Shown here: positions 7,743-17,010 of the stretch, piece by piece | Layout of the letters: every line of letters begins with the position of its first letter | Position numbering within the stretch: position 1 is the first letter of the stretch | Assembly (NCBI GenBank): GCA_049513715.1 | Contig: JBEKVV010000009.1 | Span: 1-20,794, forward strand | Reading direction: 5' to 3' | DNA: 20,794 nucleotides | Origin: Candidatus Bathyarchaeia archaeon | GTDB taxonomy: Archaea > Thermoproteota > Bathyarchaeia > 40CM-2-53-6 | The notes under the pieces: generated by a model | The model's database searches: none | What the model was told of the DNA's origin: nothing | What the model saw: only the letters and a program-made list of their open reading frames with translations | Program-made: the position numbers and the translations under genes

Positions 7743-7978
7743 CAGCATCCAGTCACAGCTGGCCCGGTATTGTTTCTACATATTGTAGCGCAAGCCTTGG
7801 CAAGCGAAAAGAAACCATGCGGTGCAAGCAAAACCTAGAACATGCACCATCAACAGAGAGAGCATAAAACCCGCATCATCCTCTTTCTTAGTGCAATATA
7901 TACTGTACTTGCGAAATCTTCTTGCAAGATCCATGTGGCCTTCAGGCGTAGAGGCATAGGTTGCCGGGCCGAGCGCCA

Positions 7979-8557
7979 ATGATAATACAATACGTCTTCG
8001 AAATTTTCTACTTGACCCTCATTGCAACAATCATTGCCTTCATCCTAACATTCTACATGTTATCTGGAAAGCCACCCAAGAACAAGCAAGTCGATAATGA
8101 AAGCAAAGGCGAAAGTGTCGAACCACATGGAATGGAGAGGAGCGAGAGGAGCTGGCTCTACTTTCTCCTCGCGATTGTTTTGATCGGCAATCTCGTCACC
8201 CTGTCACCCCTAATTCCATCCGCTAGCTACGGAATGTGGACACAGTCGACTCCAGTCGAGACGATCACAATCCAAGTGGTGAACTATCACTTCATGATGC
8301 CACAGGTGCCGATCACCGTCCCCGTGGGAAAAGTCGTCGAGTTCATTCTCGTTTCTCATGATGTTACGTACGGGTTCGGGGTCTTCAGAAAAGATGGAAC
8401 TATGGTCTTCCAAATGCAAGTCGTTCCAGAACCATACAAGAATACTTTGCTATGGGTTTTTGACCAGCCCGGATTTTATGATGTGAGATCCACAGAGTAC
8501 AGTGGCCCACTAAGCCCGTTCATGTACCTTCCAGACGCGGTCCACGTGGAGGGTTGA
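7979..8557 (+). CDS. Heme-copper oxidoreductase subunit II (2 TM + cupredoxin) lacking CuA ligands
   Basis: Two TM helices, then ITVPVGKVVEFILVSHDVTYGF..QPGFYDVRSTEYSGPLSPFM. The canonical DVxH and CxExCGxxHxxM are replaced by DVTY and STEYSGPLSPFM. ATG 7979 is preferred as start. Confidence 0.9.
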   Translation: MIIQYVFEIFYLTLIATIIAFILTFYMLSGKPPKNKQVDNESKGESVEPHGMERSERSWLYFLLAIVLIGNLVTLSPLIPSASYGMWTQSTPVETITIQVVNYHFMMPQVPITVPVGKVVEFILVSHDVTYGFGVFRKDGTMVFQMQVVPEPYKNTLLWVFDQPGFYDVRSTEYSGPLSPFMYLPDAVHVEG

Positions 8558-8560
8558 GCG

Positions 8561-10183
8561 TTGAACGAAGATGAACGGAAAATTCTCACGTTAAGGTTCG
8601 TAGTTGTGTCCCTGCTTTTCTTGGGCCTCGGCGGAATAGAGGGCGTAATGATGCGTGGTAGGGTTGACAACCTTGATGTCCCCTTGCTAGGGTTGGATCC
8701 GCAGCACTTCTACGCCATGCTGACTGCGCATCCGTTCGTTTTGATCTACGGATTCGCATACATGGCCGTAATGGGCGCCTTCTACTTCCTCGTCCCGTAT
8801 GTGCTTGGCCGGGATATTTACAGCAAGAAGACTGCGGCCGCTTCATTCTGGCTCATGATTGTGGGGGTCATGATGGTTTGGACGACGTCGTTCGTTACTC
8901 ATTATGCTCCACTCTATACGCTCTACTGGCCGCTTCCCGTAGCGGTTGCGACAGCCGGATGGAATCCGGTCAGTATTCTTCCATTCGGAGTAGGCATGGT
9001 CCTCATCTTCGTGGCGGTGTTAGCGTTCTTCTTCAACATGTTCGCAACAGTCTTCCTTCCACTTCGCCCCGCCACCAGTTCCCGGCCGAAGTCGACTTTT
9101 ATCGCCGGGGAACTGCTTGTGACCGCATTCAGCTTGGACGTGCTCAGAGCCAAGATTCGCGGTGCCCCGAGCTACGTAAGTAAGGTCTTCGCGTTCCCAG
9201 TGTTCGTAGTAGCCGTTTTCAGGGGCTGCGTTGATACAACCATCAACGCACTCATCATGGGCGGGGTAGGAGTTCTACTCTCAACCTACGGAATCTCCTA
9301 CCTAATTCCATCCATTGCGCTTAGTCCAACGTTGATTGACCCGCTCGTCTACAAGAACGTGTTCTGGTGGGGGCTGGACATGATCGCTGACGGAAACGTG
9401 TTAATGTTCACAGCCGCAACATGGTACCTCATAATTCCCCTACTTTTGAATCGAAAACTCTTCGGCGAGAACGTCGTTAGATCTGTGATCCTCGCTGACC
9501 TCTTGGTTTCAATGGGAGTTTGGGGCCATCACGTGATGGCTGATACACCACAACCCCTCGGGCTTCTCGTTGAAGGCCAGATTGTAACATGGGGCGAGCT
9601 TGTTACAATGGGGTTGACAATATTCGCGGTGCTAATGACCCTGTGGCTAGCCCGTCCCGTTAAGTATACTGCGCCTTTGAAGTGGGTGCTCGTTTCCATC
9701 ATGGGCTACGGAATAGGTGGAACTGCTGGCATAATACAGGCCAATTATGCAGTGAACCGCTATTTCCACAACACGCAATGGGTCGTGGGAATCCACGCGC
9801 ACGTGCAACTGCTTCTTGGATTGGGCGCAACAATCTTCGCCGCCATCTACGCACTATTCCCTCTGCTAACTGGCAAACAACTCAACGAGCGACTCTCAAA
9901 TCTGCAACTCATCCTATGGACGGCTGGTGCTCTAGTGATGGGACTTAGCATGGGGGTAGCGGGGGTAAACGGAATGCTGAGACGCATGTTATACATCAAC
10001 GGCTTAGGCCCGTTCCAAGAATACATGAACGCCGCTCTCATCGGGGCCATTATCCTAGCCTCGGGGTACGGTGTTTTCCTATTGAATATCGTACGAGCCG
10101 TAGGCCTCAGAACACTCCTCAGCATATTCTACTCACCTCACAAACCAACTGTAGCAGCCTCAGTTGCCACCCACGCAAGCTGA
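8561..10183 (+). CDS. Heme-copper oxidoreductase subunit I, gNOR-like putative nitric oxide reductase
   Basis: About 12-13 TM helices. Low-spin heme His (LTAHP), WGHH, WVVGIHAH and GMLRR are present; helix VI reads FWWGLDMIAD instead of FWFFGHPEVY. Confidence 0.88.
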   Translation: MNEDERKILTLRFVVVSLLFLGLGGIEGVMMRGRVDNLDVPLLGLDPQHFYAMLTAHPFVLIYGFAYMAVMGAFYFLVPYVLGRDIYSKKTAAASFWLMIVGVMMVWTTSFVTHYAPLYTLYWPLPVAVATAGWNPVSILPFGVGMVLIFVAVLAFFFNMFATVFLPLRPATSSRPKSTFIAGELLVTAFSLDVLRAKIRGAPSYVSKVFAFPVFVVAVFRGCVDTTINALIMGGVGVLLSTYGISYLIPSIALSPTLIDPLVYKNVFWWGLDMIADGNVLMFTAATWYLIIPLLLNRKLFGENVVRSVILADLLVSMGVWGHHVMADTPQPLGLLVEGQIVTWGELVTMGLTIFAVLMTLWLARPVKYTAPLKWVLVSIMGYGIGGTAGIIQANYAVNRYFHNTQWVVGIHAHVQLLLGLGATIFAAIYALFPLLTGKQLNERLSNLQLILWTAGALVMGLSMGVAGVNGMLRRMLYINGLGPFQEYMNAALIGAIILASGYGVFLLNIVRAVGLRTLLSIFYSPHKPTVAASVATHAS

Positions 10184-12981: not shown

Positions 12982-15297
12982 TTAAACGGGAGGAACCTGC
13001 CCGTCTTCCAACGTAATCACGTTCTGAATGTGCTCATCTAAGCCGCCTACGTGGCTGATGATGAAGATCTGCTTGAACTTCTTCGACAAATCCACCGCCA
13101 AGTACTCGAGGATGCTTGACCGCCGAACTTCGTCTGAGCTTCCCAGCGGCTCGTCCAGGAACACAAATTCAGGTTTCTGCCCCTTCACTTCTGGCAGAAG
13201 AGCTAACGCGAATGCAAGCCGCATGGCCAGCAGAAACTGATCTTCCGTTCCTCCGGAATACACGTCGCGGGGCTTGTACTCGCCTGCCTCAGGATCCCAG
13301 ACTTGCAGGTTGTAGTTTTCATCGAGCATGGCCGCTTTGTAGCGTGAGGACGTCAGCGCCGGTAGAATTGCGCCCATGTAGGCTTGAACGTTCGGCCTAA
13401 TCCGGTTCCTGAGCGACTCAGCGGTACCTTGCAGCCCCTCAACCGCCCGCCAAACAACTTGGAGATGACGCTCCAGTTTCTTGACGGCGCCCTCTTGCGC
13501 TTGAACCCGCGAAACAATGTCGCCATGCTCCGCGATGTAATCATCCAACTGGCGGATTCTCTGCTGGTTCTGCTGGAGTTCAGCCTGGAGGCCGGCCATC
13601 TGCCGTCCCAGAGTTTCACGGTTGGTAAGTGTTTTCGTGAACAGTACAGGGGAGAAAGTCACACCATCAGGTAGCTTCGGAAATGAAAGCGAGTTAAGCT
13701 CACCTTCAAGTTCGTGGACCAGCTTCTCAAGCGCAATCAGATCGTCGGAGGAAGGAGTCTTCTGCAATTCTCCTTGGATCGCTTGCTGCTTCGCGCGCAA
13801 CGTGTTCACTGTTTGCTTGTCTTGTGAAGAGGCATGCAGAACCATACTCGCTGCCTGTAGGCTCCCGAGGTTCAAATTCGACTCGAAGACCCCCCCCTGG
13901 GAGGGGGGTAAGCTCTCGCACAGTTGGGCCATCTCTGCCTCAGCCCCAACAAAGCTCAACTTCGCGCGGCTATGCTCATCCTCAGCTTTCTTGAGATCTC
14001 TCCGTTTCCCCTCAAGGAAGCGAAGGTCTCCAATAAGCGACTGATGTTGTACGATGGAACCTCGTGCCGACATTCTTGAAACGGCGAATCCAAGTGGAAC
14101 CATCCCCGCAAGAGCAAGGGCCATGGCAAGGAGCATGGCTCCGACCAAGAAAGCAGAAATGGCAGCTACAAAGAACACGACCGATGCAAGCGTAAAGGGC
14201 ATTATGGGTTTCTTTGCCCTCTCCACCTCCTTCCCAAAGCGTGTCTCGTTAACAAACGAGTGCTTTCGCTCAAGGTCCCTTACCTCCGAATCCAAAGTCC
14301 GCCAAGTTCGTTCTGATGCAGTCAGTTCAGCTGCGCTTGCTTTGGCTGCCTCCAGTTTCGCCTGAATTTTCCCTAGAACGGGTTCGGATTGTCCATAGTC
14401 TCGGAATTTGCTTAGGTCTTTCTCGATACCCTGAAGCTCAATCCTCAGTCGCTCCGTTCGGCGCTTTTGCTCCTCGAGGAGCTTACTCTTGCCATCGACC
14501 TGGGAGCTCAGGTTCTCTTTCTTTCGGAGAACCGAGTCGTATGCGGATAGCGTGTTGCAGAGGGCGCTCGTATCTGCATATTTCGTTTCCAAATTCTTGA
14601 TCGATTCGCTGAGACTCACGTTTTGCTCGAGCAGCTTCTTTCTTTCAGCCTCGCTCTCTCTGAACTCATTGAGTTCCTGTTTGAGGACCTTGAGCTTTTC
14701 CTCTCCAACAGGAACCCGCCCGGGTCGGTTGGGTGTACCTTCTAGGTCTCGTCGTTCTTCGGCCAAGTCCGCCATGACAACGTTGAAGCTTTCTAGGTTG
14801 AGGAAAGCGTTGATGATCTTCCTTCTATCGTCCTTGTTCAGCTCGATGAGTTTGTTGAGTTCTTTCTGCGCTACTACGGTGCTTGAAACGATTTCATGAT
14901 ATGTTATTCCACCCAGGAGTTTCACGATTTCTTCATTAACCCTCTCCTGCCCCACCGCTATGGGCTGGACAGAACCTCTCGCAGTAAGCTCGTCCAAAGT
15001 CGCCCGGGTTGGCTTGGTCTTGAACAGGCGCCTCTTAACACGGAACTTTCTGTCCGCAACCTCAAATTCTAGGCTGACCGAAGCTTCACTGGCCCCATAG
15101 CGAACTAGGTCTTCGTTTCGGGCCTTGGGCGGGCGGATTACTCTGCCGAATAGGGCGTACAGAATCGCGTCCAGCACCGAAGATTTTCCGGATTCATTGA
15201 GGCCCGCGATGAGGGTTATGCCATTGCTGAATTGGACTGGGTCGTCTAATCGCAGCTTCTTGAAGTTCATCGCGTGCAGGCTCAGGAGCCTTACCAA
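12982..15297 (-). CDS. Rad50/SbcC/YhaN-like SMC-family ATPase with central TM hairpin
   Basis: Walker A GLNESGKS, Q-loop VAQ, long coiled coils, signature YSGG, Walker B FLDEP, H-loop ISH; no CxxC hook. Confidence 0.93.
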   Translation of the reverse strand: MVRLLSLHAMNFKKLRLDDPVQFSNGITLIAGLNESGKSSVLDAILYALFGRVIRPPKARNEDLVRYGASEASVSLEFEVADRKFRVKRRLFKTKPTRATLDELTARGSVQPIAVGQERVNEEIVKLLGGITYHEIVSSTVVAQKELNKLIELNKDDRRKIINAFLNLESFNVVMADLAEERRDLEGTPNRPGRVPVGEEKLKVLKQELNEFRESEAERKKLLEQNVSLSESIKNLETKYADTSALCNTLSAYDSVLRKKENLSSQVDGKSKLLEEQKRRTERLRIELQGIEKDLSKFRDYGQSEPVLGKIQAKLEAAKASAAELTASERTWRTLDSEVRDLERKHSFVNETRFGKEVERAKKPIMPFTLASVVFFVAAISAFLVGAMLLAMALALAGMVPLGFAVSRMSARGSIVQHQSLIGDLRFLEGKRRDLKKAEDEHSRAKLSFVGAEAEMAQLCESLPPSQGGVFESNLNLGSLQAASMVLHASSQDKQTVNTLRAKQQAIQGELQKTPSSDDLIALEKLVHELEGELNSLSFPKLPDGVTFSPVLFTKTLTNRETLGRQMAGLQAELQQNQQRIRQLDDYIAEHGDIVSRVQAQEGAVKKLERHLQVVWRAVEGLQGTAESLRNRIRPNVQAYMGAILPALTSSRYKAAMLDENYNLQVWDPEAGEYKPRDVYSGGTEDQFLLAMRLAFALALLPEVKGQKPEFVFLDEPLGSSDEVRRSSILEYLAVDLSKKFKQIFIISHVGGLDEHIQNVITLEDGQVPPV

Positions 15298-16454
15298 GCA
15301 CCTGCGTCCCCCAGTTTAGCTTGGCAGAGCCTCAACGCTTCCTCGAGAATCTCCTTGTCCTCGCCGGAGGCGCTTGAGATGCTGGCGAGGAAGTGACGTC
15401 GCAGTTCCTCGAGAGGCGTTGTTCTCGGAAGAGCGGCCAGCGACTCTGGTGATTCTATCTCTAGCTCATTTTCGTCGATGAGTAGATGGAAGAATTTGCC
15501 TTCCGCGTAGAGAAGTAGCTCGCTTCTTCTGTACCCTGCTAATTGCTCGGCTGTGATCCCGCCTTTCAGCCGTAGCCTAACTATCCCGCTTGGGTTCTTT
15601 GCGTGGTCGATTGCTTCCTTCAACTGCGGCATGGGCGTCTTGCCCTCCGGAAAGAAAACATCAACTGTCTTGAAGTCGCGAGCTGTGGTCTTGATGTGCT
15701 CCTTATTGACAACGCCTTCTTTGCTCAGCTCCAGCCAAGCGAATCCTTTCTCCTCACTCTCCTCCTGAAACGAGGCCCGCTCTGTGCTGCCGGGGTAAAC
15801 TATCGTGGTGTGTTGCAGTTCCTTCGTTTGGTACGCGTGAAAATGCCCAACTCCTACAAGTTGGCAGTTCTGAGGAACTGAGGATAGCTGAATGACAGGG
15901 TCGTCCCGGGCGTACCCGACAAAACCCTCAACTGGGTAGTGGGTGAGGAGAATATTGACGTCACCATCAAACGCCGCTGCAACTGTCTTGAGCGGGTCGT
16001 TCTGAGCTGTCATCAGCGGATTTCTGCTGAGGCCCCCGATTTCCACCTTCAAACCTTCAACCAAGAATTTCCTGATGCTGAAGACGCTTGGGTTCGAGAA
16101 GAAGTGCACATACCCAGAATTTCCGTATACAGCCAGCGGCGAAGAGCCTTCCTCAGCAAGCTTTGGAGTATCATGGTCACCGCTCACAGCCAATATCTCA
16201 ACGCCGAGGTCGTGAACGGCCTTGAGGTCCTCCATCACTCTGGCGCGAATCTGGTTACCTGGCCTAATAGTATCGAACACATCACCACCAAGCAGAACAA
16301 AGTCAGGCCTGTTCCGTTTCGCGAACTCGATGGCTTCTTCAAAGCACCTTAGATGATCCCGCCGGCGCTCGAAACGTTTCGGTCCGAAGGAAAAAGCCGG
16401 TGGGTCAAGATGGTTGTCCGCTGTCAGAAGTATCTGAACACTCACAACGCCCAC
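15291..16454 (-). CDS. Mre11/SbcD-family metallophosphoesterase nuclease
   Basis: ADNHL, GDVFD, GDHD, LTH, GHFH, YPGSTER; overlaps the start of the ATPase gene (translational coupling). Confidence 0.95.
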   Translation of the reverse strand: MGVVSVQILLTADNHLDPPAFSFGPKRFERRRDHLRCFEEAIEFAKRNRPDFVLLGGDVFDTIRPGNQIRARVMEDLKAVHDLGVEILAVSGDHDTPKLAEEGSSPLAVYGNSGYVHFFSNPSVFSIRKFLVEGLKVEIGGLSRNPLMTAQNDPLKTVAAAFDGDVNILLTHYPVEGFVGYARDDPVIQLSSVPQNCQLVGVGHFHAYQTKELQHTTIVYPGSTERASFQEESEEKGFAWLELSKEGVVNKEHIKTTARDFKTVDVFFPEGKTPMPQLKEAIDHAKNPSGIVRLRLKGGITAEQLAGYRRSELLLYAEGKFFHLLIDENELEIESPESLAALPRTTPLEELRRHFLASISSASGEDKEILEEALRLCQAKLGDAGAW

Positions 16455-16536: not shown

Positions 16537-17010
16537 CTATTCAGGCGGGTAGATTCGTTTTCCAGTTTTCCTGTCGACGATTGTTATGGCCTGCGTTGGG
16601 CAGGATTGAGCTGCCATCATGAGGTTCTCGAGATCTTTGCCCCCAGCCTCATCTAATACGTCCAGTTTCGCGCTGCTCTGGAAGACCCCTTTGCCGGGGC
16701 GCTCGTCTAACCTGAACACGTCTGGTGAGACAATGACGCAGCTCCCGAAGCCGAGGCATTTGTCGGCGTCCACCTCGACCTTTACTCCACCAGCGAGCTC
16801 TTCGGTGGTTGTCTGGCGTTCAGAAGGCATCTTGACGCCTAAGCCGTCGAAGATTCTGTTTAGGGCGTTGTTGATGCTGATTTTGGCGATGGTGCCTGCT
16901 TTGGTGTAGGCGACTGTTACGTCTTCGTCGAGTTTTCTGGCGGTTGTGTCAGTATCGCTTGTTATGAGCATTTGAAGTTGGTCGGTTTTCTTGTCGTACC
17001 TCATTCTCAT
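16537..17010 (-). CDS. DUF2283-like domain fused to a monocluster ferredoxin
   Basis: N-terminus MRMRYDKKTDQLQMLI..DVTVAYTKAGTIAKISI; C-terminus VEVDADKCLGFGSCVIVSPDVF..AAQSCPTQAITI. Confidence 0.85.
   Translation of the reverse strand: MRMRYDKKTDQLQMLITSDTDTTARKLDEDVTVAYTKAGTIAKISINNALNRIFDGLGVKMPSERQTTTEELAGGVKVEVDADKCLGFGSCVIVSPDVFRLDERPGKGVFQSSAKLDVLDEAGGKDLENLMMAAQSCPTQAITIVDRKTGKRIYPPE

Follow-up and report, generated by a model that had tools for sequence, protein, structure and literature searches.

The window analysed here is an entire 20.8-kb contig (C9; 20,794 nucleotides) of an archaeal genome of 2.79 Mb (completeness 99.4%, contamination 8.8%), and its reverse strand encodes an Mre11-like nuclease followed by a Rad50-like ABC ATPase, the two open reading frames (ORFs) overlapping by 7 nt. 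The first-pass annotation had described Mre11 paired with a Rad50-like ATPase in which a hydrophobic hairpin replaces the zinc hook, and both parts of that description are borne out by the ORFs, by the metal and ATPase motifs, and by the properties of the hairpin. The nearest named relatives of the ATPase carry the label Bathyarchaeia. The locus comprises the following features.

15291–16454, minus strand: Mre11 nuclease, 387 aa, matching Pfam Metallophos and NCBIfam Mre11_Sulfo, with metal motifs
12982–15297, minus strand: Rad50-like ABC ATPase, 771 aa, no CxxC, matching Pfam AAA_23/SMC_N and NCBIfam Rad50; its TTG start overlaps the mre11 stop
14788–15297, minus strand: N-terminal head half, about residues 1–170 (boundary approximate), with Walker A GLNESGKS at 32 and Q-loop Q144
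14077–14208, minus strand: apex hairpin, residues 364–407, with two hydrophobic helices (368–386 and 388–406); predicted membrane segment at the place of the zinc hook
12985–13410, minus strand: C-terminal head half, about residues 630–771 (boundary approximate), with YSGGTEDQ at 680, Walker B at 711–716, D-loop and H-loop

Nuclease, ATPase head and apex hairpin

The window pair shares with canonical Rad50/SbcC systems an Mre11 partner with intact metal motifs. All five are present (D13-N-H15, GDVFD 57–61, GDHD 92–95, H172 and GHFH 203–206), and motif III reads GDHD also in four hook-type partner Mre11s; the match to Mre11_Sulfo (E 1e-26) lies under the cut-off of that model. The motifs of the ATPase are likewise intact, including the GxNESGKS motif read in the first-pass annotation (GLNESGKS), Q144, the SGG signature in YSGGTEDQ 680–687, Walker B FVFLDE 711–716, the D-loop SSD at 720 and H749, and across 52 aligned relatives every motif of the split ABC head is kept, with little or no variation. 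The ATPase scores 61 bits with AAA_23 and 26 bits with AAA_27, an ESM Atlas lookup returned AAA_23/AAA_27 clusters only, and the best sequence matches in the PDB are archaeal Rad50 heads (E 3e-29), while the match to NCBIfam Rad50 (E 4e-35) is far under the cut-off, at 121 of 700 bits.

The ATPase contains two cysteines (247 and 460) and no CxxC, and Rad50_zn_hook has no match anywhere in the genome. In place of the hook stands an uncharged run of 44 residues (364–407), which turns at Gly386 and is flanked by basic residues on both sides; the peptide that the first-pass annotation had placed at about 14085–14205 corresponds to residues 365–406, measured at nt 14205–14080. The best 38-residue Kyte-Doolittle mean of the protein, 2.27, was matched by none of 5000 shuffles (maximum 2.10), in which the longest uncharged run was 37 residues. 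These shuffles, together with a hairpin in 119 of the 120 listed homologues, exclude chance or an artefact as its origin. In 15 close relatives the hairpin centre lies a median of 34 residues beyond the midpoint between Walker A and Walker B (range 18–49), and the zinc hook of 30 hook proteins lies a median of 48 residues beyond the same midpoint (quartiles 30–53); the hairpin matches the hook in position.

The composition of the hairpin resembles that of membrane segments. Specifically, the cores in the 52 relatives span 37–47 aa with a mean hydropathy of 2.14 and only 5 charged residues in all 52 together, and K/R outnumber D/E in both flanks (2.9 versus 0.6 and 1.8 versus 0.2). Each of the two helices scores 2.2–2.3, compared with 1.3–2.7 for the COX1 helices encoded in the window and peaks of 0.5–1.5 for the five soluble proteins encoded there. 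The hydrophobic moment of the hairpin is 0.30–0.44, versus about 1.0–1.1 for the coils, and modal-residue conservation over the same relatives is 0.41 in the hairpin, 0.42–0.45 in the coils and 0.71–0.79 in the heads. Under the established rules for membrane proteins, such a pattern predicts a hairpin of two helices whose ends both lie on the cytoplasmic side. Taken by itself, the proposal that the hairpin resides in the membrane is, judging from these features, likely correct.

A family of hairpin-tipped Rad50s and its operon

A homologue search found 279 proteins, and among the 120 of them that were listed the hairpin lies at the midpoint in all but one, at identities of 37–100%; the exception (P0043, 428 aa) changes frame inside the hairpin. 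In a set of 382 proteins, biased towards relatives of the query, 349 are whole, and these divide into 292 with a hairpin only, 46 with a hook only, 11 with neither and none with both. When 1.84 billion representatives were searched with a profile, 1374 matched at E 1e-30; of the best 150 matches 141 were new, and among those 141 none has a CxxC and most of the whole ones have a hairpin; a second profile extended to hook-bearing proteins, past a score gap. A hairpin at the apex in place of the hook is a trait of the family, of which the window gene is one ordinary member. Named carriers include Bathyarchaeia, Caldarchaeum, Thermofilaceae, Brockarchaeota, Thorarchaeota, Methanophagales and Chloroflexota, and P0143, recorded as the Rad50 of Thermofilum adornatum 1505, gives a cultured carrier. 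In an even sample of the phylum, 27 of 401 genomes match at E 1e-40, with a hairpin in eight of the nine loci retrieved from them, and in the genus g2 every genome (11/11) carries the system. No match came up when plasmids were searched with P0204.

Several Rad50-like proteins have neither apex. The genome G332 holds a second herA-mre11-rad50 locus (L201:4491–9384), whose 760-aa Rad50 lacks both CxxC and hairpin, and the same holds for L169 (G016) and for the 11 proteins counted above, so further apex types exist.

Family searches of the genome, and local profiles made from the other types, turned up no Mre11 and no Rad50 besides those of the window. In particular, a profile of 29 hook-type and YhaO-type Mre11s scores the window gene at 159 bits and the next candidate at 39, which rejects a second canonical Mre11-Rad50 (MR) pair, and no separate canonical herA-mre11-rad50-nurA locus, for which the first-pass annotation had proposed a check, was found in the genome. 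Beyond the pair, what the head profiles retrieved was limited to ABC proteins, SMC (1190 aa) and an SMC-like frame of 649 aa that lacks CxxC, and a search of the genome for Ku found none. L040:5521–8257 (G000:C1, ~597,500–600,300) encodes an SMC-like ATPase of 641 aa that has neither a CxxC nor a hydrophobic segment, and two genes without a Pfam match follow it.

Two candidates for an operon orthologue elsewhere in the genome were rejected. The nurA-herA of contig C2 is of a distant type and has no mre11 or rad50 beside it; genes for an MT-A70-type methylase and for a methyl-directed nuclease resembling DpnI lie only a few genes away (L039:3868–10556; G000:C2, ~427,900–434,600), a region that is possibly a defence island. 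The HerA-like gene of contig C1 sits among pilin and KaiC-like genes (L175:2381–13442; G000:C1, ~216,400–227,400), where translations read as a HerA-like ATPase, pilin-like proteins, a KaiC-like ATPase, two cysteine-rich proteins and a prepilin-peptidase-like protein.

As the first-pass annotation noted, the immediate neighbours of the window pair are not herA and nurA; rpl3 and a DUF2283-ferredoxin gene are found instead. Of the 59 loci taken from named genomes, 44 have enough upstream DNA (the other 15 being too short or partial), and these split evenly into 22 with nurA-herA-mre11-rad50 and 22 with mre11-rad50 alone, so that the absence of herA and nurA is not supported as a trait of the system. 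The hairpin form occupies the rad50 slot of the standard nurA-herA-mre11-rad50 operon in many other archaea. Among 30 carrier genomes of the class, 27 have one Mre11, adjoining the hairpin gene, one has two, and two have none (one of them a known miss). All five closed genomes carry the four-gene operon with a hairpin, and four of them have no other Mre11; in these four, the other Rad50-like frame has a CxxC, and in the two that were checked it scores best with arcadin-4 and lies beside crenactin.

Phylogeny, probable module exchange and relation to SbcE

Rad50 trees were built from head columns only, as a quick tree of 75 rows and a careful tree of 32 of those rows, chosen to span the groups; the approximately unbiased (AU) test used 32 rows and 324 head columns. 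In the quick tree, the hookless rows (hairpin clade and YhaN-like) fall on one side of a branch with support 99, and the careful tree separates the same two groups from the hook proteins at 98/95. Seven YhaN-like rows form their own group (100/99) on a long stem, while the query lies in an 11-row clade with archaeal and Chloroflexota relatives (98/97). The head sequences place the window ATPase among hookless, hairpin-tipped Rad50s of archaea and Chloroflexota, in a clade predicted to be sister to YhaN/SbcE, a relation that is less sure than the support values given the long YhaN branches. A single clade of archaeal hairpin and hook Rad50s from the same operon is rejected by the AU test (p 6e-6), and with it conversion in place of the operon's hook Rad50 to a hairpin form.

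In a quick Mre11 tree, from which L156 was left out for lack of the first motif, the 15 Mre11s that partner hairpin Rad50s group together in a separate clade (99), to which none of the seven YhaO-like rows belongs. In a HerA tree of 18 hairpin and five hook operons, from whose careful version three distant, long-branched HerAs were dropped, the hook operons branch from within the hairpin operons twice (100/99 and 98/94), and a single hook group is rejected (AU p 0.008, in a test chosen after the quick tree had been viewed). On this evidence, at least two swaps between hook and hairpin modules apparently took place within the operon. The simplest reading of the sequences would be that whole mre11-rad50 modules, hook or hairpin, have been exchanged behind the same herA-nurA, so that both types likely serve the same function. 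Which way the swaps ran depends on the root, which is weak.

The first-pass annotation had linked the ATPase to the YhaN branch, and the deep grouping (98/95) upholds that link. Membership of the YhaN branch itself is not supported, given the separate clades of the two groups, the partner Mre11s lying apart from YhaO, and Walker B, which reads DE in 29/29 members of the hairpin clade versus DD in 13/15 YhaN-like proteins. A Walker A NE occurs in 29/29 of the hairpin clade, 11/15 YhaN-like proteins and 0/30 hook proteins. The YhaN group is represented here by L145 (on synteny) and L146 (on its record name), in place of Bacillus subtilis SbcE itself. L145 (Latilactobacillus, Lactobacillales; yhaO-yhaN-yhaM order) has a like hairpin at its midpoint; it is one of ten YhaN-like loci, of which six more have a hairpin (one weak) and three proteobacterial ones do not. 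The plasmid-borne proteobacterial loci L146, L152 and L153, from a search that matched 183 plasmid records, encode YhaN-like proteins with Mre11-like partners and neither hook nor hairpin.

SbcE/SbcF (YhaN/YhaO) and the window pair have in common the lack of CxxC, a hydrophobic centre, an Mre11-like gene upstream and the NE in Walker A. The window ATPase differs in its canonical Walker B and SGG signature and in belonging to a clade of its own, as does its Mre11; furthermore, SbcE coexists with SbcC, whereas the window pair is the sole MR pair of its genome, and no HD-domain gene of the YhaM type lies beside it. According to the accessible part of the SbcE study (PMC2811018), the protein lacks a CxxC, its hydrophobic central domain was fully insoluble when made in E. 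coli, and it acts in break repair and in transformation. The word "membrane" appears twice in that accessible text, in the methods only, and SbcE is mentioned in passing only in what is accessible of PMC10221552 and PMC4205851. SbcE is the nearest published case of this architecture, and no connection with the membrane was made for it there.

The MR complexes of the archaeal nurA-herA-mre11-rad50 operon (Pyrococcus, Methanocaldococcus and Sulfolobus) resemble the window pair in their split ABC head, their long coiled coil and the mre11 gene directly upstream, and relatives of the window pair hold the same operon slot. These complexes have a CxxC hook, in contrast to the hydrophobic apex hairpin and separate Rad50 clade here, and searches of the window lineage did not find the herA of that operon. 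E. coli SbcCD likewise couples a nuclease gene to an SMC-like ATPase gene, but SbcC has a CxxC hook at its midpoint and no hydrophobic segment, and is 21–27% identical in the head. ASRP/coalescin/Sph and arcadin-4 are, like the window ATPase, archaeal SMC-like proteins outside canonical Rad50 (PMC9389158). As far as its available text goes, that paper describes ASRPs as mostly retaining the zinc hook; the arcadin-4-like proteins of the genomes analysed here have a CxxC, lie beside crenactin and lack an adjoining Mre11. Against models of these kinds the window ATPase reaches 67 of 300 and 55 of 860 bits. No effector or accessory genes of the kind found in Lamassu-like SMC defence lie beside the ATPase, which has general head matches only.

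A putative membrane-hung complex and its alternatives

From these comparisons we propose that the window pair forms a housekeeping DNA-end processing complex, probably hung from the membrane through an apex hairpin that replaces the zinc hook, and we put the probability of this reading at about 0.6. It builds directly on the intact ATPase and nuclease motifs, the hairpin at the hook position, the mutual exclusion of hook and hairpin across the family, the single copy, and the operon slot held in relatives; among the roles considered in the first-pass annotation, anchoring of repair at the membrane fits best, membrane insertion being a prediction from sequence. In the proposed arrangement, two Rad50 and two Mre11 subunits would assemble as in other MR complexes. 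Because of the basic flanks and the tight turn, both ends of the hairpin would stay in the cytoplasm, so the heads would hang below the membrane, by our own estimate up to about 25–30 nm under it (~190 residues per arm at 0.15 nm each). Packing of the hairpins, or their confinement in the bilayer, would join the tips and supply the apex link given elsewhere by the hook. In yeast, the hook is described in the accessible portion of PMC6969161 as a standing dimer link whose mutant fails and for which SMC hinges can substitute. Broken ends would be caught and trimmed at the membrane and then passed to HerA-NurA where these are retained, the hand-over from Mre11-Rad50 being the usual one in archaea in the text available from PMC7752040. 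In the window lineage, without an operon herA, the ends may be passed to another resection route.

Several observations weigh against this proposal. Hydropathy does not distinguish a spanning hairpin from a re-entrant one or from a buried bundle, and in long bacterial members the distance of the hairpin from the midpoint reaches 187 residues. In the accessible text of PMC2811018, SbcE forms foci on nucleoids that move between the poles, and is not termed a membrane protein. A second Mre11 locus is present in G332 and G197, and the Mre11 family search gives false negatives (it missed G016 and G065). The NurA tree also nests hook operons, and there a single hook group is not rejected (support 58). 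Within the genus of the window (g1) the system is patchy, being carried by 3 of 23 genomes (in one of these the frame is split), and 12 of the 22 other genomes, several of them more than 90% complete, give no Mre11 match; in that genus, then, the hairpin pair is not indispensable. Finally, none of 16 carriers in the window's family yielded the operon herA. Neither of two carriers of family f6 yielded it either, and in four other families 11 of 12 carriers have it, which makes the bare mre11-rad50 of the window likely a secondary state.

Mre11-Rad50 content is unusually fluid in g1 (G001–G022), as judged by an Mre11 search with known misses: non-carriers have hook types or no match, and G002 has three different hook-type pairs. 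In the same genus, the hairpin Rad50 at L047:2137–4601 (G001:C32) is split after the hairpin into two overlapping frames, by a frameshift or an assembly error.

Of the alternatives, the one that survives best, though we consider it unlikely, is that the membrane-anchored complex acts mainly on DNA crossing the membrane, in uptake, transfer or viral entry, and not on chromosome breaks. The accessible text of PMC2811018 reports that loss of SbcE cuts transformation 20-fold and that SbcE lies at the poles of competent B. subtilis cells; the patchy spread in the genus and the module swaps resemble mobile systems; and the head matches defence SMC-like models generally (for example LmuB, E 1.5e-25). 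However, neither ComEC nor DprA was found in the 99.4% complete genome, and the pair has no defence neighbours but lies among rpl3, ferredoxin and metabolic genes, with rpl3 retained beside it in G001 and G017. Mre11 and its upstream neighbour have no PADLOC match, four closed genomes have their sole Mre11 locus within the four-gene operon, and the system is carried throughout genus g2. The action on incoming DNA suggested in the first-pass annotation is thereby disfavoured.

Less probable still is a soluble dimerisation module, in which two hairpins would form a cytoplasmic four-helix bundle serving as a metal-free hook. Dimerisation is the hook's basic role and other soluble modules can replace it, according to what is accessible of PMC6969161; small or fixed residues recur in the hairpin (P367 83%, A379 73%, L394 76%, G398 69%), and SbcE was observed on nucleoids. 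Yet some 40 residues that are hydrophobic all round, have a low moment, replace one hydrophobic residue freely by another and are bordered by basic residues at both ends better fit a lipid-facing segment than a specific interface, and the insolubility of the SbcE central domain points the same way.

The least favoured alternative, an archaeal SbcE/SbcF acting as an accessory back-up beside a canonical Mre11-Rad50, has the missing CxxC, the hydrophobic centre, the Walker A NE and the shared side of the 98/95 branch to commend it but is already weakened by the separate clades, by a head identity to YhaN-like proteins (17–27%) not above that to hook proteins (20–29%), by the Walker B and AAA_23/AAA_27 differences (AAA_27 being weak also in some short YhaN-like proteins), by Mre11s that form their own clade away from YhaO in the quick tree, and by a genome without a canonical pair.

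A wider version of the membrane-hung proposal, which we hold tentatively and at slightly less than even odds, is that many TACK and some Asgard archaea repair double-strand breaks at the membrane through a bilayer-closed Mre11-Rad50 lineage. That lineage would be the older occupant of one nurA-herA operon lineage, exchanged there for hook modules at least twice, with SbcE/YhaN as a fast-evolving offshoot.

The hook region of Rad50 is called absolutely conserved in the accessible text of a 2020 review (PMC7752040), and the function of the hook is debated. Although the zinc hook has long been called universal, nature can likely replace it, and a widespread natural Rad50 that lacks the hook, is the sole copy in its genome and exchanges with the hook type in the same operon offers a test of the hook as a tether only. 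A membrane location of the hairpin, if correct, would couple the processing of breaks in these archaea to the cell surface; this has a bearing on the placement of chromosome and repair in prokaryotic cells, and the pull of SbcE to the DNA-uptake pole would be simply explained. Our literature search, with most subscription papers outside it, found no description of a membrane-anchored Rad50/SbcC, and the word "membrane" is absent from the available text of PMC9389158 and of 10.1101/2021.05.15.444277.

The pair has a G+C of 0.51–0.55, like the remaining window, and a promoter scan of the locus with bacterial-type models gave chance levels. It is flanked by rpl3, which is convergent and adjoins the pair also in G001 and G017, and by a same-strand gene directly upstream of mre11 (16537–17010) that fuses DUF2283 to a single-cluster ferredoxin and holds the same place in G017. 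Elsewhere in the window (7961–10183), a small membrane protein without a Pfam match, which we read as CuA-like, is followed by a haem-copper oxidase subunit I.

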